Assembly (NCBI GenBank): GCA_963745945.1
Contig: CAVUZG010000004.1
Location: 1,526,711 to 1,590,710 of the forward strand
DNA from: an uncultured Ignavibacteria bacterium
GTDB taxonomy: Bacteria > Bacteroidota > Ignavibacteria > Ignavibacteriales > Ignavibacteriaceae
Reading direction: 5' to 3'
DNA length: 64,000 nucleotides
This document shows positions 16,976 through 26,790 of the stretch, piece by piece (position 1 is the first letter of the stretch; each line of letters starts with the position of its first letter). The notes beneath the pieces are model-generated. The model was not told the origin of the DNA. It made no database searches and saw only the letters and a list, made by a program, of their open reading frames with translations. The position numbers were made by a program, and so were the translations under genes.

Positions 16976-17097
16976 AATCCAATAGCTGTCCATAGGACCC
17001 CTTCGGGGAAGTTATTGGTTAATGAAATTGTACTTTTTATCATTAACCAACGGTTTTATCTGTTGGATTATTGGTAACCGAACACTCTCCTCTCTCT

Positions 17098-17166
17098 CAT
17101 TAACCAACGGACCTGCCTTTGCCGGCTCGCCTCGCTGAGCCGTGGCGAAGCGGGCAGGCAGGTTTA
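17098..17166 (+). repeat. GC-rich palindromic interspersed repeat, D-type, copy 1
   Basis: cattaaccaacggacctgcctttgccggctcgcctcgctgagccgtggcgaagcgggcaggcaggttta. It aligns almost base for base with 18766-18832. The cattaaccaacgg head also occurs at 17041, and inverted at 17013-17026. Confidence 0.85.
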
Positions 17167-17287
17167 GTCAGGTGAGAAAAACAATCCCTCCATAAAAATT
17201 AACCGTTTTAACGGTTTACAATTTTTCTATTGCTTACATAAAAGTCTTTTTATAATTTCTTATAAACAAAAATGATTCTTGATACTT

Positions 17288-18673
17288 ATGAAAAAATTAT
17301 GCCTTCCTTACTTTTTTATAATAATGCTTGCCGCAGGGAATAATCTTTTCGCGCAGAACATTTACTTCCCACCCAATACCGGGAATACATGGGAAACTGT
17401 TTCTCCTGAATCACTTGGCTGGTGCACTGAAAACATCGATACCCTGTATTCTTTTCTTGAACAGAAACACTCAAAGGCATTTATTGTCCTGAAAGACGGC
17501 AGAATTGTAATTGAACATTACTTCGGTTCATTTACACAGGACAGTATATGGTACTGGGCTTCTGCCGGAAAAACACTTACAGCTTTCCTTGTCGGCATAG
17601 CTCAGGAGGAAGGATACTTTTCCATACAGGATTCGACTGCAGAATATCTTGGTACCGGCTGGACATCCTGTCCGCCTGAAAAAGAACAGCTGATTACAAT
17701 CCGTAACCAGCTTACAATGACCAGCGGATTAAATGATGCTGTCAGCGATCCGTATTGTACTGATCCTGCATGTCTTGTTTACCTGGCTGATGCAGGAACA
17801 AGATGGGCTTACCATAATGCGCCTTATACTCTTCTTGATAAAGTTGTTGAAAACTCAACCGGGCAGAATTATAATGTGTATTTCAATAATAAAGTAAGAT
17901 CGCGTATTGGAATGAACGGATTGTGGCTGCCTTCGGGTTATAACAATGTTTATTTCAGCAGTGCAAGAAGTATGGCAAGGTACGGAATACTGATAGAGAA
18001 CCACGGAGTATGGGATGCTGATACACTGATGCGCGATACTTCATACTTTAATGCAATGGTAAATACATCGCAGGATCTGAATAAATCTTACGGCTACCTT
18101 TGGTGGCTTGCAGGAAAAGAATCTTATATGATTCCGCAGACGCAGATTGTTTTTCCCGGTACGTGGGCGCCGGATGCACCTTCAGATATGATTGCCGCAC
18201 TTGGCAAGAACGGGCAGATATTAAATGTTGTTCCGTCTCTCGGACTTGTGCTTGTGCGAATGGGCGATCCGCCTGATACTTCACTTTATATTTCAACTTA
18301 CTTTAATAACCAGATATGGCAATTGCTGAATAACATAATCTGCAATCAGACTGCAATAAAAACCGGTAGCACAACACCGGCTGATTTTACTCTTGCACAG
18401 AATTATCCGAATCCGTTCAATCCCGAAACAATTATAAAATATTCAGTCCCGAATGTCATTTCGATCCCGACTGGTCGGGAGAGAAATCTTTTTGTTACTC
18501 TAAAAATTTACGATATACTCGGAAGAGAAATAACCACACTGGTTAACGAAGAAAAACCTGCAGGAAGTTACGAAGTTAGTTTTAACGGCAGCAGACTTCC
18601 GAGCGGAGTTTACTTTGTACGAATGACTGCAGGTGAATTTAGTTCGGTAATTAAGATGAGTTTGGTGAAGTGA
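17288..18673 (+). CDS. serine hydrolase (beta-lactamase/class C fold) with T9SS CTD
   Basis: S-x-x-K motif in WASAGKTLTA and an overall AmpC/esterase-like sequence. C-terminal NYPNPFNPET...LVNEEKPAGSYEV..GVYFVRM..KMSLVK. The ATG at 17288 (MKKLCLP.. signal) is preferred over the TTG at 17279. Confidence 0.8.
   Translation: MKKLCLPYFFIIMLAAGNNLFAQNIYFPPNTGNTWETVSPESLGWCTENIDTLYSFLEQKHSKAFIVLKDGRIVIEHYFGSFTQDSIWYWASAGKTLTAFLVGIAQEEGYFSIQDSTAEYLGTGWTSCPPEKEQLITIRNQLTMTSGLNDAVSDPYCTDPACLVYLADAGTRWAYHNAPYTLLDKVVENSTGQNYNVYFNNKVRSRIGMNGLWLPSGYNNVYFSSARSMARYGILIENHGVWDADTLMRDTSYFNAMVNTSQDLNKSYGYLWWLAGKESYMIPQTQIVFPGTWAPDAPSDMIAALGKNGQILNVVPSLGLVLVRMGDPPDTSLYISTYFNNQIWQLLNNIICNQTAIKTGSTTPADFTLAQNYPNPFNPETIIKYSVPNVISIPTGRERNLFVTLKIYDILGREITTLVNEEKPAGSYEVSFNGSRLPSGVYFVRMTAGEFSSVIKMSLVK
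18454..18490. repeat. A-type hairpin repeat embedded in-frame inside the CDS
   Basis: tgtcatttcgatcccgactggtcgggagagaaatctt is the reverse complement of the intergenic unit aagatttctctcccgaYcagtcgggatcgaaatga (26671-26703, 22713-22740, 28813-28838). It is translated as NVISIPTGRERNL. Confidence 0.85.
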
Positions 18674-18709: not shown

Positions 18710-18765
18710 TTGCTTAGTTTATCTCACCGGGATGAATCCCGGTGTTAACCATTATTTTAAAGTCT

Positions 18766-18832
18766 CATTAACCAGCGGACGCCTTTGCCGGCTCCCCTCG
18801 CTGAGTTGTAGCGAAGCGGGCAGGCAGGTTTA
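18766..18832 (+). repeat. GC-rich palindromic interspersed repeat, D-type, copy 2
   Basis: cattaaccagcggacgcctttgccggctcccctcgctgagttgtagcgaagcgggcaggcaggttta. It has the same orientation as copy 1, a 2-nt deletion and a few substitutions. Confidence 0.85.
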
Positions 18833-18946: not shown

Positions 18947-19855
18947 ATGAAAATGTGGGTCGGCGTTACCGATAAAAAGTGGTTTGATTATCTCTCCAGT
19001 ATTTCACCAGATGAGGTAAACTTTTGGAAACCAAGCGGAAAGAATTTCGGCGCTATTGATATTGGTGCACCTTTCCTTTTTAAATTACATAGTCCAATTA
19101 ATAAAATTGTCGGTGGCGGTTACTTCATTCGTTCCGAACAATTACCACTGTCCTTAGCTTGGGATGCTTTTGGTAGTAAGAACGGCGCCCATAATTTTAT
19201 AACATTGAGGGATTCAATAAACTTTTATAGAAATTCAGGTGATGCTGATCCTACGATTGGTTGTATAATACTGAATGAACCATTCTTTTTTAAAGAAGAC
19301 CAATGGATTGATGTACCGGATTCATTTGCAAGAAATATTGTAACTGGAAAAATTTATGATACTAGTGAATACGATGGCAGAAAAATTTGGGATGCGGTTT
19401 CTGAAAGGTTAGACTTTCAAAATGTTAGTGGAATTGTTGCTGAACCATTAGCTGGTTATGGAAATGAATACTTGATTAAAAGCAGATTGGGACAGGGCGC
19501 TTTTAGAATTTTAGTGACAGATGCTTATAAAAGGAATTGTGCCATAAGTGGCGAAAAGGCGTTACCGGTTTTACAAGCTGCACACATAAAACCTTTTAGT
19601 GAACAAGGACCGAATAGTATTAACAATGGTTTATTACTCCGCTCTGATTTACATATACTTTTTGATAGAGGATATATAACAGTAACTCCTGAATATAAAA
19701 TTGAAGTGAGTAAAAAAATTAAAGAAGAGTTCAATAATGGTAAACATTATTATGCTTTTCAAGGAAAAGAATTAAAATCCTTACCACACTTAAATCAAGA
19801 TAAACCAAGTCTTGATTTTGTTCGGTGGCATAATGAAAATATTTATAAATATTAA
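18947..19855 (+). CDS. HNH nuclease fusion (HNH_2/COG3440-like predicted restriction endonuclease) with an uncharacterised N-terminal domain
   Basis: The C-terminal half has RLGQGAFR..CAISG..LQAAHIKPF..NGLLLRSDLHILFDRGYITV. The N-terminal ~170 aa (WVGVTDKKWFDYL..FWKPS..FLFKL..IVGGGYF) form a separate domain. Calling it PUA/EVE-like is based on pattern only. Confidence 0.75.
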   Translation: MKMWVGVTDKKWFDYLSSISPDEVNFWKPSGKNFGAIDIGAPFLFKLHSPINKIVGGGYFIRSEQLPLSLAWDAFGSKNGAHNFITLRDSINFYRNSGDADPTIGCIILNEPFFFKEDQWIDVPDSFARNIVTGKIYDTSEYDGRKIWDAVSERLDFQNVSGIVAEPLAGYGNEYLIKSRLGQGAFRILVTDAYKRNCAISGEKALPVLQAAHIKPFSEQGPNSINNGLLLRSDLHILFDRGYITVTPEYKIEVSKKIKEEFNNGKHYYAFQGKELKSLPHLNQDKPSLDFVRWHNENIYKY

Positions 19856-19869
19856 AGGGGAACTGATTA

Positions 19870-20717
19870 TGAAAAAAAACTTTGATCCTATTATTTATGT
19901 TGAAAATGATGGACTAAAAACTTCGGATGTTGGTATTTGGGCGATGGAAAAATATCAATTGTTGGGCGGTTATTGCGATATATTTACTAAGGGAATGAGA
20001 TCAAAATGGAAAAATTTAGTCTATCTTGATTTATTTTCGTCTGCTGGGTACTCCAGAATTAGAGAAAATGGTAAATTAGTCAAATCATCCCCCCTCATTG
20101 CTTTATCAATACCAACAAAATTTGATAAATATATTTTTTGTGAAGAAGACACTGAACTCTTTTCTGCTTTAACAAAAAGAGTTGAGAAAACTAATAAAAT
20201 ATTGAATGTTGAACTTTTCAATGAGAATTGTAATTTAGCTATTGATAAGATAAAGAATTCTATTCCAGATTATTCTGTGAACAACACTGTTTTATCATTC
20301 TGTTTTTTAGACCCGTATGACTTATCAATAAATTTCTCAACAGTTAAGAACCTTGCAAGTGGTTTAATTGATTTTTTAATTTTACAAGCATTACACATGG
20401 ACGGAAATAGGAATTTTAGGACTTATTTATCAGAGAATAATGAAAAGATCAATAATTATTTAGGAAGAGATGATTGGAGAAAATTATGGGAAAAGTCAAA
20501 ATTATTACCCAAAGATTTTGTAAGATTTTTAGCCGATCAATATGATGATAATATGAAAAAACTTGGATATTTGACAGCAAAGAGACATCTAATTAAACTG
20601 CCATTTAAAAATGTTCCTCTGTATTATTTAACTTTTTATTCAAAACACAAAACCGGCCTTGATTTTTTTGATAAAGTCGATGAATATTCTACACCTCAAC
20701 TTAATTTTGGAATATAG
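19870..20717 (+). CDS. tcmP: three-Cys-motif partner protein (TcmP-like)
   Basis: The ATG at 19870 follows an AAAGGGGA RBS, 14 nt after the upstream stop, so the track ORF start at 19812 is not needed. The sequence (..NLVYLDLFSSAGYS..YIFCEED..FCFLDPYD..) and its position directly upstream of a Gp37/Gp68 three-Cys protein match the TcmP family as I remember it. Confidence 0.7.
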
Positions 20718-20718
20718 T

Positions 20719-21453
20719 ATGGCACAAACAAGAATAGAGTGGACTGAATTAACCTGGAACCCAACTACCGGATGCAATAAAGTATCTCAGGGTTGTAAAT
20801 TCTGTTATGCAGAAGTAATGGCACGAAGACTAAAAGCTATTGGGCTAGAAAAATATCGAAATGGATTTGAATTAAACTTGCACGAAGAGGCACTTAAAAT
20901 ACCTTATTCTTGGAAACAGCCGAAAATTGTATTTGTTAATTCAATGAGTGATTTATTTCATAAAGATATACCATTAGAGTTTATCCAAAGAGTTTTTAAT
21001 GTAATGAATGATAATCCTCAACATGTATTTCAAGTTTTAACAAAACGGGCAGATATACTTTTAAAGTATCATAAGGAACTTGATTGGACGCATAATATTT
21101 GGATGGGCGTTTCTGTTGAAAATGAAAAGTCACTCAGTCGGATTAATCTTCTAAGAAGGACAAATGCCAAGGTAAAATTTCTTTCTTGTGAACCTTTAAT
21201 TGGGCCTCTTTCAAATTTAAACCTTAAAAAAATCGATTGGGTTATTGTTGGTGGTGAAAGTGGAAGAAGACCAAGACCTATGAAACCTGAATGGGTTTAT
21301 GAAATACAGAATAAGTGCCTTGAAACAAATGTTCCATTCTTCTTTAAACAATGGGGAGGAACAAATAAAAAGAAAACGGGAAGGGTTTTAAAAGGCAGAA
21401 CTTATAGTGAGATGCCAATGGTCAAGAATCTTTTAGAAAATTATAATACTTGA
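20719..21453 (+). CDS. phage Gp37/Gp68-family (DUF5131) three-Cys protein
   Basis: The ATG lies 1 nt after the tcmP stop. IEWTELTWNPTTGCNKVSQGCKFCYA has C-x6-C-x2-C. The blocks FVNSMSDLFH, FLSCEPLIGPL, DWVIVGGESG and FFFKQWGG are hallmarks of the family. Confidence 0.8.
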   Translation: MAQTRIEWTELTWNPTTGCNKVSQGCKFCYAEVMARRLKAIGLEKYRNGFELNLHEEALKIPYSWKQPKIVFVNSMSDLFHKDIPLEFIQRVFNVMNDNPQHVFQVLTKRADILLKYHKELDWTHNIWMGVSVENEKSLSRINLLRRTNAKVKFLSCEPLIGPLSNLNLKKIDWVIVGGESGRRPRPMKPEWVYEIQNKCLETNVPFFFKQWGGTNKKKTGRVLKGRTYSEMPMVKNLLENYNT

Positions 21454-21456
21454 CAA

Positions 21457-22191
21457 ATGAAATCCTTCTTCCCAAAACCAAACCTCAAAACAGATGATAT
21501 AATTTCTTATGCAGAATTAGTTGCAGAAGAAAATGCAAACATACAAAAGGGAATGAACTTTCAGATAAAACCTGAATACTCAATATTTTTAATGTCTGTC
21601 CGCAAAAATGCACCTTATGCTGATGAATGGGATGAAAAAGCAAACACACTTATTTATGAAGGACACGATGTACCGAGAAATGTTTCTCAAATTCCTAAAG
21701 AAGTAGACCAACCTTTAACAACTCCAAACGGGACACTAACTGAAAACGGAAAGTTTTTTACAGCGGCTCAATCATATAAAATGAAATTGATGGAACATCC
21801 TCATAAGATAAAAGTTTATGAAAAAATTAAAGATGGTATTTGGTGTTATAAAGGTTTCTTCAGCTTAGTAGATGCAAAAGTTGTTTTTGATGGAGTACGA
21901 AACGTTTTTAAATTTTATCTTCAACCTGTAGAGATGAAATCATTTAAGAAAGAAATTATTTTACCACATAATCGATTAATTCCTACACACGTTAAAGTAG
22001 AAGTTTGGGCAAGAGATAAAGGAAAATGTGTGAAATGCGGTTCAAAAGAAAACTTACATTTTGATCACGATCTTCCCTACTCAAAAGGCGGAACAAGTTT
22101 AACAGCAGATAATGTTAGAATATTATGTATGAAGCATAATTTGAAGAAATCTGATAAGATTTTAACAATCCCACCAATATTCTTCAGTTAA
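21457..22191 (+). CDS. HNH nuclease with SRA/YDG-like N-terminal domain (putative modification-dependent endonuclease)
   Basis: The ATG lies 3 nt after the upstream stop. C-terminal HNH motif CVKCGS..LHFDHDLPYSKGG..NVRILCMKHNLKKSDK. The N-terminal EYSIFLMS..YADEWDE..LIYEGHD..VDQPLT..NGTL mirrors the spacing of SRA domains. The SRA reading is an inference. Confidence 0.7.
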   Translation: MKSFFPKPNLKTDDIISYAELVAEENANIQKGMNFQIKPEYSIFLMSVRKNAPYADEWDEKANTLIYEGHDVPRNVSQIPKEVDQPLTTPNGTLTENGKFFTAAQSYKMKLMEHPHKIKVYEKIKDGIWCYKGFFSLVDAKVVFDGVRNVFKFYLQPVEMKSFKKEIILPHNRLIPTHVKVEVWARDKGKCVKCGSKENLHFDHDLPYSKGGTSLTADNVRILCMKHNLKKSDKILTIPPIFFS

Positions 22192-22197
22192 AGTAAA

Positions 22198-22225
22198 TCA
22201 CACTTCGACCAAGCTCAGTGTGACA
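22198..22225. repeat. hairpin (terminator and/or repeat fragment) closing the four-gene island
   Basis: tcacact-tcgaccaagctc-agtgtga, a 7-bp stem located 7 nt after the stop at 22191 and followed by caaaaagattttt. Confidence 0.5.
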
Positions 22226-22272: not shown

Positions 22273-22596
22273 CTAAGGTAAATAATCCTCCCTTACCGGA
22301 GAAAAAACTTCAATCACAACCGAGTCCTCGTGTACTTTTACACAATGCTCTACGTTTCCCGGAATATTCCAGCTGTCGCCTGCTTCAGCATCAAATTCTT
22401 TTCCATCAATTATGAAGGTCATTCTTCCTGAAACTGCATAACCCGTCTGTTCATGCGGATGGCTGTGGTTTGGAATTATATATCCCTTTGCAAGATGGAA
22501 TTCACCAAGCGATGTTTTATCACCGTAGGTAAGTGTTTTATACGTAACACCTTCTATAGCCTGCCTGTAATTAGTTAAATCTTTTTTGTAGAACAT
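22273..22596 (-). CDS. cupin-domain protein
   Basis: 107-aa ORF with cupin motifs HSHPHEQTGY and GD.W.IP..V.H. Confidence 0.8.
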   Translation of the reverse strand: MFYKKDLTNYRQAIEGVTYKTLTYGDKTSLGEFHLAKGYIIPNHSHPHEQTGYAVSGRMTFIIDGKEFDAEAGDSWNIPGNVEHCVKVHEDSVVIEVFSPVREDYLP

Positions 22597-22875: not shown

Positions 22876-23053
22876 AAAAACCTGCTCCGTTAAAAAAATA
22901 ATATCACTTCGTTATCACTTTTCCTTTCTTTTCCTGCGTTTAATAAAAGAGAGATAAATCATTTATAAACAAAGTTGAAAACCAAAAAAGGTAACCTTTG
23001 CTTCCTGTTACCATCCTGGATTGAGCTTTTCAACACTAAAGGAGACAATATTT

Positions 23054-26000
23054 ATGAAAAAGATCGGATTATTCTGTCTGTTTACTTTTACAGTAATTCT
23101 CACGGTCAGCTTTTCCACACCCGCTCAAACTTCCGGGTACAGGGACAGGCTTAACCAGGTAAAAGATCTTGTTAATTCAAATGAATTAATTATGATATGG
23201 AGCCAGGGGGACAATTCGAGTGCTCAGAATTTGCACCAGAGAATTTATGATCTCGATTTAACGCGTCCGGGCGGTGTTGATTCAACACTTGTAAGAAAAC
23301 CGCTGGAGATTGATTCATCCATAACAGGCAATAAAACTCTTGCGGTTGCCTCAGGAAATTTTCTTGACGGGGAATATAAAAATATAGTCGCGGCGTGGGA
23401 ATCGGGAGATAATACAGTGCGGGTTTCTGTTCCTGAAATAAATTCAGGAACTTTATCCTGGACAAACACAAATGAATTAACATTAAACGGGCTTGCGACA
23501 TTTGAAAAAAATAAGATACACGTTGCAGCCGGAAACTTTTTCGGTAATCCCCAGGAGGAATTTGTGGTTGCGTACCAGGGGCAGGATACAACAATACATC
23601 TTCAGTTATGCGGGTTTAACCCGGGGAGTCTTGTTCCGCACCTGCAGGGAAGTATTAACGATGAACAATCTTATAAAGCCAATGTATTCATGAATAATTT
23701 TGATGTTGTTACAGGAGATTTTAACAGCGACGGGTATGATGATATTGCATTGCTGTTTCTTAAACCGGTCGGAGCAAACAACTGGGCTCTGTGGATTACA
23801 ATTTATACTATTGATAATAACGGAAATTTTGTAAGAAGATCTTCCAAGCAGGTATTTGAAGAACCGGCATATACTATAGATGATGTGAGTATAGATGGTA
23901 CTGCCGGATCATTTGACGGCGATGCTGAAGAGGAAATTGCCTACGGGTTCTCATTTTTCCAGAGAGATCAACCCGGAAATGACACTTACGTTTATCTTCT
24001 TGATATAAAGGATAATCTTGATTCAATAATTGTTGATGATTCAAAAAGAGTTGCTGCAAATTTAGTGGGACCGAATGAAATGCCGCTGTTTAATATTGCC
24101 GCTGGAGATCTTAACAGGGATAATCATGATGAACTGGTTCTGATGTCCGGCGGAACATTCTATGTTTATTCAGTTGATAATGATTTAAACGCTCAATACA
24201 AATCGCAGCAAAGTGTACTGACACCGGGGTTAAACTGGGACAGCGATGCTTTTCTTGCTGTAGGAGATATGGATCTTGACCGGAGTGCAGAAATAGTAAT
24301 TGTAAAAAATTACCAGGACTTTGACCCGGGAGGTTTGCAGTATTTTCAAATGAATGTATTTAGCATTGATACAACCCTTACAAACTATACACTGAAAGCA
24401 AGAAGACTGCAGGAAGAATCAATACCCAGAAACTTCAACGAAAGAAAATATGCAATAGCCCTGGGTGATTTTGATGGTGACAGGGTGAGACTGGGTGATC
24501 CTGTACATTACAGCAGAAGCGGTGTAATGCAGCCTGAAGTAGTTCTGAACACTCCCCCGGTTCATTATGATATTATTAACGGAACTACTTATGATTTAAG
24601 CGGGTGTTATCCTGATCAGAATTGCGGCTTTACTTCTTCATATGTACAATCGACAACCAGCGATACTACAATTACTACAGAAGTGCACGAAGACTGGGGA
24701 GGTGATGTTACAGTAACTGCATCCCAGTTTTTACTAAAAGAAAAAGTTAAGGCAACTTACGGTGAGAATTTCAGTAATAAACAATCTTCAGGAACATCAT
24801 ATACCATAACTACCGGCAGAATTGCTGCAGGGGATGACTGGATATACTCGAATGTTTTTGATATAGATTTTTATGAGTATCCTGTTTATAACGGGCAGGA
24901 CCCGACACCAATAGGATATTTTATGGTAACTATTCCGAAAAACCCCCGGCCTTTATGGATAGAGATGAAAGATGATGATTTACTCGGCAACCAATTCAGA
25001 CCTGATCATGAAACGGGTAATGTGCTTTCGTACAGATCAACAGATACTTATGATACTTCCCGTGTTATTGTGGATTTTCCCGAGCAGACAATTGGCGCAA
25101 CCGGGAATAGTTTTGTTTCCCTTCAGATTCAGTCGTTCCAGGAACATAACGTAGAAACAAGCTGGGATGAAGGACTGGAAGTTGGTGCAACTCTCGATCT
25201 TTCAATCAATCTGCTTGGTTTTGATGCCGGTGTTGATGTAGAGGCAAACGGACATTATAATCTTGGTGAAATTTCCACTCAAACTGTCAGGGTTCAGAAT
25301 TCACTGGAGGTAAGAGGCGACCTCGGTCATTTAAATAATCAGTTTGGAACAAGCGGAACTTATTATGTACAGCCTTATGCATACTGGACATCTTATGGGG
25401 CGCTTGATTTGGATTATAAAGTTACTCAATTGCCGGTCGGGGCAAATTCATTCTGGCAAACTCACTACGGTAATAAGACCGATCTTGCTTTTAGTCTGCC
25501 GTGGAGATACGACCCTGAAAAAGGTTATCCCCTGCCGGGTAATGATACAACATACCGCTATCGTTCAAGAGATATAAGATTATCAAAGATTCAGCCGCTT
25601 GGCGGAGATACCGTTACTATTACCGCAAAAGTACGAAACTTCGGGCTGCAGGCTGTCACAACTCCATTCAGTGTAAAATTTTATAAAGGTGATCCGGACA
25701 ATGGCGGGTCTATGATAGCCCAAACTACAGTTGACACCACAATTGCAGCACGCGGTTACAGGAATGTTTCCGTTCAATGGGCAATACCGCTAAGCCAGAA
25801 TTTAGACAGTGTAAGAATTTATGCAGTACTTGACCAGGAAAATGCGGTTACAAATGAAGTTCATGAAAATAATAATAAAGGCTGGGCTCCGGCTGTCGGT
25901 TACGGATCAATAACAGGAATTAAACCCGAACATAACACGGTTCCCGGCAAGTTTACTCTATACCAGAATTACCCGAATCCATTCAATCCCGAATCGACAA

Positions 26001-26209
26001 TTAAATTTGAACTGCCCTCTTCAGGTAAAGCGTCTCTTATAATTTATAATATACTCGGGCAGCAAGTGCAGACTCTTGTAGACGGATTTTTAAATAGGGG
26101 AACTTATGCAGTACAGTTTAACGGGGCAAAACTTGCAAGCGGTGTTTATTTCTATCGCCTGCAAACTAACGGCTTCGCTCAGACAAAGAAAATGATGCTG
26201 ATGAAATAA
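23054..26209 (+). CDS. large secreted FG-GAP-repeat / CARDB-domain protein with T9SS CTD
   Basis: The ATG at 23054 follows an AAAGGAGA RBS (the track ORF starts at TTG 23021). Repeated GDFN.DG.DDI / GDLNRDNHDELV / GDMDLDRSAEIV / GDFDGDR motifs. CARDB-like ITAKVRNFGLQAV..VKFYKGDP. C-terminal NYPNPFNPEST..GVYFYRL..KMMLMK. Confidence 0.75.
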   Translation: MKKIGLFCLFTFTVILTVSFSTPAQTSGYRDRLNQVKDLVNSNELIMIWSQGDNSSAQNLHQRIYDLDLTRPGGVDSTLVRKPLEIDSSITGNKTLAVASGNFLDGEYKNIVAAWESGDNTVRVSVPEINSGTLSWTNTNELTLNGLATFEKNKIHVAAGNFFGNPQEEFVVAYQGQDTTIHLQLCGFNPGSLVPHLQGSINDEQSYKANVFMNNFDVVTGDFNSDGYDDIALLFLKPVGANNWALWITIYTIDNNGNFVRRSSKQVFEEPAYTIDDVSIDGTAGSFDGDAEEEIAYGFSFFQRDQPGNDTYVYLLDIKDNLDSIIVDDSKRVAANLVGPNEMPLFNIAAGDLNRDNHDELVLMSGGTFYVYSVDNDLNAQYKSQQSVLTPGLNWDSDAFLAVGDMDLDRSAEIVIVKNYQDFDPGGLQYFQMNVFSIDTTLTNYTLKARRLQEESIPRNFNERKYAIALGDFDGDRVRLGDPVHYSRSGVMQPEVVLNTPPVHYDIINGTTYDLSGCYPDQNCGFTSSYVQSTTSDTTITTEVHEDWGGDVTVTASQFLLKEKVKATYGENFSNKQSSGTSYTITTGRIAAGDDWIYSNVFDIDFYEYPVYNGQDPTPIGYFMVTIPKNPRPLWIEMKDDDLLGNQFRPDHETGNVLSYRSTDTYDTSRVIVDFPEQTIGATGNSFVSLQIQSFQEHNVETSWDEGLEVGATLDLSINLLGFDAGVDVEANGHYNLGEISTQTVRVQNSLEVRGDLGHLNNQFGTSGTYYVQPYAYWTSYGALDLDYKVTQLPVGANSFWQTHYGNKTDLAFSLPWRYDPEKGYPLPGNDTTYRYRSRDIRLSKIQPLGGDTVTITAKVRNFGLQAVTTPFSVKFYKGDPDNGGSMIAQTTVDTTIAARGYRNVSVQWAIPLSQNLDSVRIYAVLDQENAVTNEVHENNNKGWAPAVGYGSITGIKPEHNTVPGKFTLYQNYPNPFNPESTIKFELPSSGKASLIIYNILGQQVQTLVDGFLNRGTYAVQFNGAKLASGVYFYRLQTNGFAQTKKMMLMK

Positions 26210-26330: not shown

Positions 26331-26790
26331 GTCCCGCAGCCCGCTTCGCTAAAGCTCAGCGAGGAAAGGAGCGGGACAGGCTTCGCTATTAAGATTTCTC
26401 CACCAGAGGCGGACAGGCCAATTGTTCTGCTGAAGCAGAACTCACTCTGGTAAAGTCATACCTCTGTCATAGGCAGACAGGTTTGGCAGAAATGACTGTG
26501 AGAGAAAAAATTATCGGGAATAAGAATTGTCATATCGAAGGAGTCCGGAGGACGACTGAGATATCTATCCTGGGAGTTAAGATTTCTCCCTACGCCTGCC
26601 TACCGGCATAGGCAGGGTCAAAATGACTCTGTGTGAGAGATTCTGATATTCATCAGAATGACACTCCTTTAAGATTTCTCTCCCGATCAGTCGGGATCGA
26701 AATGATCCGCCAGAACGGGAAAAGCAAGCCTGCCAGAGAAAGGTAAGTCCCAAATAGCGGCAGACGGGGAGCAACAAACCCTTATTTTTC
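26331..26790. repeat. about 460-nt mosaic array of nested GC-rich palindromic repeat units (BIME/REP-like)
   Basis: Successive hairpins are gtcccgc..gcgggac (an inverted D-type unit), accagag[gttctgc-tgaa-gcagaac]ctctggt, cctgccta-ccggc-ataggcagg, attctgat-attc-atcagaat and tcccga-tcag-tcggga. They are linked by recurring taagatttctc and (t/g)(c)(g/a)aaatgac connectors. Confidence 0.85.

Follow-up and report, generated by a model that had tools for sequence, protein, structure and literature searches.

When four genes lie within a few nucleotides of one another, do they make up one system, or are they separate units that share a site? The question is raised by positions 18947-22191 of a 64,000-nucleotide (nt) stretch of DNA from an uncultured Ignavibacteria bacterium (GenBank assembly GCA_963745945.1, contig CAVUZG010000004.1, positions 1,526,711 to 1,590,710 of the forward strand), which is called the window here. 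A scan of the window for open reading frames (ORFs) finds four of them on the plus strand of this block, with intergenic gaps of 13, 1 and 3 nt. The first, g1 (18947-19855; 302 amino acids, aa), has an N-terminal domain of about residues 1-170 and a C-terminal HNH_2 domain; the second, TcmP (19869-20717; 282 aa), has a predicted class I S-adenosylmethionine (SAM)-methyltransferase fold closest to that of RlmJ; the third, a three-cysteine DUF5131 or Gp37/Gp68 protein (20719-21453; 244 aa), is predicted to belong to the radical SAM superfamily; and the fourth, g4 (21457-22191; 244 aa), has a probable SRA-like N-terminal domain, as judged from a structural model, and a C-terminal HNH domain. An earlier note on this DNA proposed that the four genes form a single system in which the inner pair writes a mark on DNA that is read by both HNH fusions. 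We regard the block rather as a mosaic in which three separable modules share a variable defence site, not as one four-component machine, and would give this reading a probability of about 0.6.

How does the same site look in relatives? In L125 and L126 (loci used for comparison bear numbers of this kind), g1 is followed by g4 after a gap of 6 nt, with no pair between them. Both loci share the beta-lactamase/type IX secretion system (T9SS) gene of the upstream region, and L125 has extra genes between that gene and g1. In a blastn comparison, L125 5001-5907 corresponds to window 18947-19847 and L125 5922-6655 to window 21457-22190, with 14 nt between the two segments in L125, and window 19848-21456 (plus strand), which comprises the last codons of g1 plus TcmP and DUF5131, is absent from that locus. 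Adjacent g1 and g4 with the pair absent are also found in L060, L062 and L068. In other relatives different genes occupy the interval: L038, whose synteny with the window extends to both flanks (86% and 94% nucleotide identity), has g1 (85%), a 507-aa DUF262/NsnA gene, g4 (94%) and then the same convergent cupin gene, and L039 has g1 (75%), an OLD/GajA-like ATPase gene and g4 (77%). The absence of 19848-21456 from L125, together with the other cargo in L038 and L039, indicates that TcmP-DUF5131 is cargo inserted between a resident g1 and g4. Three modules, g1, the two-gene cassette and g4, are separable at this site. The immigration control region of Escherichia coli K-12 and chromosomal defence hot spots have conserved flanks that enclose several kinds of restriction genes, and the present site is like them in that restriction-type genes (type IV, type I-like accessories and ATPase systems) replace one another between conserved neighbours at a fixed position. 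It differs in that one of the conserved flanks, g4, is itself a defence-type gene, and in that the cassettes abut the g4 start codon with no spacer and no recognisable recombination site.

Conserved synteny of all four genes had been named as a check on the single-system proposal, and the result is mixed: all four recur once, in L037 (2932-6700), and sub-blocks recur in L048 and L045, but no intact recurrence was found. L037 is the sole other locus with the whole set, and there an extra small ORF is inserted and g4 is truncated and degenerate (C194F, C-terminus lost). Compared with the window, the DUF5131 protein of L037 is 88% identical and TcmP only 51%, with nucleotide similarity at the two ends of TcmP only, a difference that points to recombination inside the pair.

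Does the pair need its two neighbours elsewhere? A census that took one genome per GTDB species returned 33 loci. DUF5131, whole or in fragments, directly follows TcmP in 30 of them, mostly with gaps of 0-5 nt; the other three are cut or have no TcmP ORF. No homolog of g1 or g4 lies within 6 kb of the pair in any of the 33 loci. In 13 of the 33 loci the pair lies beside or inside a type I, III or ISP restriction-modification (R-M) operon. In ten of these hsdR is upstream, in most cases with hsdS/hsdM downstream, and the pair comes after a type III Mod-Res in two loci and after a type ISP enzyme in one. Restriction enzymes of types I, III and ISP employ SAM as cofactor or effector, and the link of the pair to SAM-requiring R-M operons is strong. 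Its other neighbours include Shedu, a dCTP-deaminase-type defence gene, HigB, HTH-M78 and a GIY-YIG/exonuclease fusion. The pair is disrupted by a frameshift or a stop in six of the 33 loci (DUF5131 is split in L006, L024 and L026, and TcmP in L030, L032 and L033). Defence genes that are costly or dispensable often decay in this way, but some cases could be assembly errors in metagenome-assembled genomes.

Is the pair a named system? In PADLOC, gene 2 is PDC-M41A (PDLC04635, E 5.9e-20) and gene 3 is PDC-M41B (PDLC04639, E 4.2e-127), the latter also matching PDC-M30B. The PDC systems (n=145) are predicted candidates; the guilt-by-embedding screen that yielded them picked out genes lying within BREX, DISARM and type I R-M systems (Payne et al., bioRxiv 10.1101/2024.01.29.577857). 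The inner pair is thus already listed, as the candidate PDC-M41, but the match names it and explains no function. Full-text literature searches found no functional study of DUF5131, TcmP, Gp37Gp68 or COG4422, and the statement of the earlier note that the pair has no demonstrated function stands. The window pair is like PDC-M41 in being the same adjacent two-gene unit, with a 1-nt gap, whose relatives are embedded in type I R-M operons. It differs in lying between two HNH genes; no R-M, BREX or DISARM system was found around it, and the embedding by which PDC-M41 was defined is therefore lacking at this site.

TcmP-DUF5131 has been found in Bacteroidota, Ignavibacteriota, proteobacterial plasmids and cyanobacterial phages. 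Distant pairs on proteobacterial plasmids lie beside Abi genes, a Hna-like helicase and a CHAT protein, and their gene order is sometimes reversed. On a Leisingera plasmid (L128) DUF5131 precedes TcmP beside the Abi genes, and on Agrobacterium pAt (L127) two TcmP paralogs and DUF5131 lie beside the Hna-like helicase and the CHAT protein; TcmP adjoins the Hna defence gene in S. meliloti as well (PMC12445080). Among phage records, DUF5131 occurs in 178, mostly of temperate actinophages, and TcmP in two. In Gordonia phage Angelique (L121, 32816-34668), DUF5131 lies in the lysogeny region between integrase and repressor and has a convergent 'methyltransferase' gene as a neighbour. Comparison of this methyltransferase (gp43) with TcmP gave a marginal hhalign score (E 0.32), and no homology is claimed. 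As a side observation, DUF5131 keeps a methyltransferase-type neighbour across very different arrangements (L121, L127, L128).

What kind of protein is TcmP? It matches TIGR04474 (E 5e-37), and no Pfam match, including DUF519/RsmJ, was found for 16 members at E up to 10, nor any sequence match in the PDB with the single sequence or a profile; the profiles used for the proteins of the block had 13-63 members. Its AlphaFold model, built on a 119-sequence alignment, has a predicted local distance difference test score (pLDDT) of 92 and a predicted template modelling score (pTM) of 0.91. The best full-length Foldseek match of the model in the PDB is RlmJ (6qe0/4blv; template modelling score, TM, 0.53; E 6e-6; about 292 columns); the DUF519 protein 2oo3 is also among the best matches (TM about 0.53, E about 1e-5). 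The remaining top hits are almost without exception class I SAM methyltransferases, and Foldseek against viral models returned generic methyltransferases only. The invariant residues are D54-L55-F...G60, corresponding to motif I, and D148-P149-[Y/F], corresponding to a shortened motif IV; C91 is nearly invariant, and C91-E fits motif II. In RlmJ, motif IV is D-P-P-Y, of the D/N-P-P-Y type that goes with amino-group methylation. TcmP resembles E. coli RlmJ, the 23S rRNA A2030 N6-methyltransferase of the DUF519 family, in the full-length structural match, in the order of the SAM motifs and in having its acidic-Pro motif at the end of strand 4; it differs in an identity of 10-12%, in a motif IV of D-P-[Y/F] and in being obligately paired with a radical SAM protein. 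The model thus predicts TcmP to be an RlmJ-like protein of the class I SAM-methyltransferase fold.

The DUF5131 protein is matched over its full length by PF07505 (E 1.5e-98); its match to TIGR04471 (E 2.4e-28, 99 bits) lies below the cut-off of 355, and PF04055, the radical SAM family, gave none. No related solved structure is detectable by sequence in the PDB with the single sequence or a profile. In an alignment of 33 sequences, C19-x6-C26-x2-C29-Y30, NSMSD 74-78 and GGESG 178-182 are near-invariant, with at most one exception per column; in 27 aligned sequences, two of them from phages, the Cys triad, Y30, NSMSD 74-78, Q-x-LTKR and G178-G182 do not vary at all. These residues look like those by which a radical SAM enzyme is recognised: the cysteine triad for a [4Fe-4S] cluster, the aromatic residue after it and the SAM-binding GGE motif. 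The likeness to that superfamily lies in the three-Cys motif with its aromatic residue and in the GGE motif, and the difference in the spacing, C-x6-C-x2-C versus the canonical C-x3-C-x2-C, as well as in the missing PF04055 match. In the RadicalSAM.org/SFLD classification the DUF5131 subgroup belongs to megacluster 5 (5-2), alongside spore photoproduct lyase (5-3) (PMC9477430). Taken at the level of sequence, DUF5131 is predicted to be an enzyme of the radical SAM superfamily.

The two outer proteins differ from each other in their HNH domains and in what precedes them. In g1, HNH_2 (PF13391, E 2e-14) covers residues 198-246, and with a profile the HNH region matches that of VcaM4I, an EVE-HNH enzyme (6yex, E 3e-12), and weakly that of TagI, an SRA-HNH enzyme (6ghs, E 0.03); HNH/REase_II models of PADLOC match g1 too. 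The family is large (more than 7463 clusters, all of about 300 aa), and the N-terminal domain occurs in 2323 representative clusters, being N-terminal in nearly all of the best 150 matches, a few of which have N-terminal extensions. By a comparison of the two families with hhalign, the N-terminal domains of g1 and g4 show no relation to each other. VcaM4I and TagI are modification-dependent endonucleases with the same layout as g1 (PMC7897488, PMC6765204), and the ScoMcrA-type SRA-HNH enzymes provide a further comparison among PUA-superfamily-HNH proteins (PMC7461809). Both g1 (about 300 aa) and g4 (244 aa) share with these enzymes an N-terminal domain of about 170 aa followed by a C-terminal HNH. 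The HNH module of g1 is homologous to those of VcaM4I and TagI, but its N-terminal domain has no detectable similarity to EVE or SRA. By analogy with these enzymes, g1 is probably a type IV (modification-dependent) restriction endonuclease that works alone. As an alternative identity, a phosphorothioate-dependent SBD-HNH enzyme (NF045808) was tried and rejected: the score was 72.5 bits against a cut-off of 180, and the match was to the HNH part only (profile positions 162-284). Outside Ignavibacteria-like genomes, in other phyla, g1 homologs of about 60% identity adjoin a Schlafen group-3-type helicase of about 660 aa (L123 2924-5930, L124 2914-5927 and L002 1819-4725), which suggests a different and possibly older partnership of g1.

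In g4, HNH (PF01844) was matched at 23.1 bits against a cut-off of 21.4 over residues 191-233. Its motif is intact: D203, H204, N219, N228 and C191 never vary, and C194 is replaced only in the degenerate copy of L037. A low-confidence AlphaFold model from 16 close homologs had SRA domains as almost all of its top 30 Foldseek hits in the PDB, among them SUVH5 (3q0d, E 2e-4), KRYPTONITE and UHRF1/2, with TM to target of 0.44-0.48. Neither a Pfam SAD_SRA match nor a PDB sequence match to the N-terminal domain was found with the single sequence or a profile. These hits make g4 a probable fusion of an SRA-like domain and an HNH nuclease. A Septu-like PtuB had also been considered, but models of PtuB gave no match at E up to 0.1. 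The g4 family comprises at least 7000 clusters, and g4 is unusual in comparison with the TagI/ScoMcrA-type SRA-HNH enzymes as the conserved 3' partner of many different genes.

How would such a mosaic work? As to the substrates, the chemistry and the anti-phage role of its modules, we infer the following. The resident genes g1 and g4 would each most likely encode a self-contained type IV endonuclease that cuts invading modified DNA. TcmP-DUF5131 is a separately mobile cassette inserted between them, and it would be co-transcribed with its neighbours only because the cassettes of the site are packed end to end. The cassette itself would be a two-enzyme SAM-dependent module, consisting of a [4Fe-4S] radical SAM enzyme, DUF5131, and the RlmJ-like TcmP, which would act jointly on a nucleic-acid base, most likely in DNA. 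It may represent an accessory module, defensive or epigenetic, that accompanies R-M systems requiring SAM. Much of the earlier view is retained here: the locus is of a defence type, the inner pair resembles nucleic-acid-modifying enzymes in its RlmJ-like fold and radical SAM motifs, and the outer proteins resemble domain-plus-HNH fusions of the modification-dependent restriction type.

Several observations weigh against the mosaic and its proposed biochemistry. With gaps of 13, 1 and 3 nt the four genes are almost certainly co-expressed, and functional cross-talk is thereby possible. Parts of the block have also stayed together elsewhere: TcmP-DUF5131-g4 is kept in L048 (about 70% nucleotide identity), DUF5131-g4 is kept in L045 (about 82%), and g1 lies beside the pair in two other arrangements, L002 and L037. 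DUF5131 cassettes are among the commonest neighbours of g4, in the form of PDC-M41 in L045 and L048 and of PDC-M30 in L058 and L059. The N-terminal domain of g1 matches nothing in Pfam or the PDB by sequence, EVE and SRA included, even with a 63-sequence profile, so that to call it a reader domain is to argue by analogy, and the assignment of an SRA-like domain to g4 is based on a model with a pLDDT of 47. Finally, RlmJ is an rRNA enzyme, which makes an RNA substrate for TcmP-DUF5131 possible.

What, then, is the meaning of the junction with g4? A scan for g4 gave 80 metagenome loci, 61 of which have an upstream ORF on the contig. This ORF is on the same strand in 51 and on the opposite strand in 10; it lies within 20 nt of g4 in 30 of the 61, often with an ATGA overlap, and the gap exceeds 100 nt in some loci. 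At least 15 unrelated defence families were found directly upstream of g4. They include Mrr (PADLOC mREase_IV, E 3e-95), g1, DUF5131, DUF262/NsnA, an OLD/GajA-like ATPase, a GHKL ATPase, a 1403-aa STAND-like protein, and DpdB-like, HerA/Zot-like, RelA_SpoT and ORF6N proteins. The loci start to resemble one another precisely at the g4 ATG, no conserved motif was found upstream of this ATG in 73 loci, and where coupling is tight there is no room for a promoter of g4's own. The sibling candidate PDC-M30, found in L058 (33-1919) and L059 (196-2752), comprises an A protein of 364 aa (E 6e-135) and a DUF5131 that shares 62% identity with the copy in the window; it lies directly against g4, whose start codon overlaps the preceding stop. 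The A protein has a motif, D-F-F-A-G-P-G, that aligns weakly with motif I of TcmP; the hhalign comparison of the two was marginal (E 0.0017, probability 15%), and homology is not claimed. This pattern of coupling may mark a defence hot spot with g4 as its 3' border, or it may mean that g4 is a shared effector.

If the second were the case, g4 would be a downstream nuclease at the service of whichever module lies upstream; in the window the pair would put a mark or damage on invading nucleic acid, to be read and cut by g4 in a three-gene mark-then-cut system, with g1 independent. We consider this unlikely, although it is the alternative that survives best. The coupling of g4, by an ATGA overlap or within 20 nt, to at least 15 unrelated upstream genes fits it well, as does the lack of space for a separate g4 promoter in the coupled loci, but in 10 of 61 loci the gene that precedes g4 runs on the other strand, and in others it is more than 100 nt away. 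Many partners have no nuclease of their own (the OLD/GajA-like and GHKL ATPases, DUF262/NsnA, DpdB-like, HerA/Zot-like and RelA_SpoT proteins, and DUF5131), and yet others, Mrr and g1, are complete nucleases. A suggestive case is the PADLOC model PDLC03418, whose N-terminal part matches the DUF262 protein of L038 and whose C-terminal HNH part matches g4, as though the two were a split GmrSD. The blocks shared with L048 and L045 and the PDC-M30 pair set against g4 point the same way, whereas the pair does without g4 in all 33 species loci surveyed, and in L037 the pair is intact and g4 degenerate.

A second alternative, to our minds about as unlikely, is that the pair is no DNA modifier but a guard or back-up for SAM-dependent restriction, or an effector directed at small molecules or RNA. 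It might sense SAM depletion by phage or anti-restriction, as PrrC guards EcoprrI, or make a viperin-like modified nucleotide, or modify rRNA or tRNA so that translation stops. The position of PrrC is at hsdR, and that of the pair, which is next to hsdR in many of the 13 loci where it lies beside or inside type I, III or ISP operons, resembles that of an embedded PrrC. PrrC is described as almost exclusively embedded (bioRxiv 10.1101/2024.01.29.577857). Against the model, no SAM-dependent R-M system is near the pair in the window and in many other loci. That the closest solved fold to TcmP belongs to an rRNA methyltransferase, and that no nuclease is consistently linked to the pair, would suit a guard or an RNA-directed effector; DUF5131, however, groups with the megacluster of the DNA-acting spore photoproduct lyase, neither a toxin-like component nor a trigger is evident, and the model is purely inferential.

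It has also to be asked whether g4, as a conserved SRA-like-HNH effector, is a universal 'socket' nuclease for diverse sensor or writer cassettes, each of which would take the place of another exactly as far as the g4 start codon. In that case the pair would put marks or lesions on invading DNA, and g4, perhaps with g1, would read and cut it. We hold this to be quite improbable; it is kept in play by the recurrent coupled DUF5131-g4 junctions (the window, L045, L048, L058 and L059) and by the many g4 partners that lack a nuclease. Less probable still is the single four-gene system of the earlier note, in which the pair modifies host DNA and both reader-HNH fusions tell self from non-self: for all the tight packing of the four genes, the plausibility of the pair as modifying enzymes, the recurrence of all four in L037 and the position of g1 beside the pair in L002, it is disfavoured by a pair that lacks g1 and g4 in 33 of 33 species loci, by g1-g4 that exist without the pair (L125, L060, L062 and L068) or with other cargo between them (L038 and L039), by an arrangement seen once only, with an extra ORF and a truncated g4, and by the known PUA/SRA-HNH relatives, which cut modified rather than unmodified DNA and are rarely encoded beside methyltransferases (PMC6765204), so that a resident writer of their own target would be self-destructive.

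The pair was already listed as PDC-M41, and the components of the block are of known or listed kinds. What is new is the fold predicted for TcmP, the motifs of DUF5131, the lead that g4 is an SRA-like domain plus HNH, and the kinship of the g1 HNH with those of VcaM4I and TagI. The TcmP fold and the DUF5131 motifs turn the pair into a testable hypothesis of two-step SAM-dependent base modification. The site itself offers a natural allelic series, namely empty (g1-g4), TcmP-DUF5131, DUF262/NsnA and OLD-like ATPase, which can guide the definition of minimal units. If the role of g4 as the 3' anchor of at least 15 unrelated defence genes is functional and not a matter of packing, it would represent a new principle of modular design, and if g4 were indeed a universal socket, the result would be a mark-then-cut immunity that uses radical SAM chemistry. 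A caution also follows from this locus: tight operon packing in defence islands is not evidence of one system.

Some details of the block itself remain to be given. The earlier note had placed the TcmP start at 19870 and the gaps at 14, 1 and 3 nt; the second and third gaps are as given, but the ATG is at 19869 and the first gap is 13 nt, since frame 19870 contains 21 stops, whereas the ATG at 19869 yields the 282-aa product common to all homologs. Its calls of HNH, TcmP, DUF5131 and HNH were each reproduced (PF13391, TIGR04474, PF07505 and PF01844), and the N-terminal part of about 170 aa in both HNH proteins proved to be some 165-170 residues with no Pfam match. As had been noticed, no integrase, transposase or classical methyltransferase lies inside 18947-22191; family scans found no part of a classical type I-III R-M system there, that is, no N6_Mtase, N4 or C5 methyltransferase, HsdS, Mod or Res. 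The suggested comparison of base composition sets the block apart from its surroundings, with a GC content of 31.9%, the minimum among 244 sliding windows, whereas the 5-kb flanks have 39-40%. A pattern scan found no convincing internal terminator in the block, and a promoter scan gave nothing above shuffled expectation, the consensus used being probably unfit for this phylum.

What bounds the block? GC-rich hairpin repeats had been thought to do so on both sides, but the two are not a matched pair. The upstream one (18763-18832, no strand assigned), which folds to -27.4 kcal/mol, is a structured intergenic repeat resembling repetitive extragenic palindromic (REP) elements; it is dispersed (a 90% copy lies at 17095-17166 and a partial one, inverted, at 26339-26364) and is no module boundary. 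The downstream one (22198-22223, likewise without strand) is an unrelated weak hairpin of -7.1 kcal/mol that separates g4 from the cupin gene convergent with it (22273-22596, minus strand). The two genes may share this hairpin as a terminator; it was not picked up by a simple terminator scan. Neither direct nor inverted repeats were found to flank the block, and a search for att-like or cassette-junction signals found none. In L038 (1020-4083), an IS200-type Y1 transposase block is inserted directly after the equivalent of window 18828. The flanking genes at 17279-18673 and 23021-26209 encode secreted proteins with a C-terminal type IX secretion (Por_Secre_tail-like) sorting domain, which is repeated elsewhere in the window, as seen from blastn cross-matches at about 13556, 28257, 44172 and 47966.

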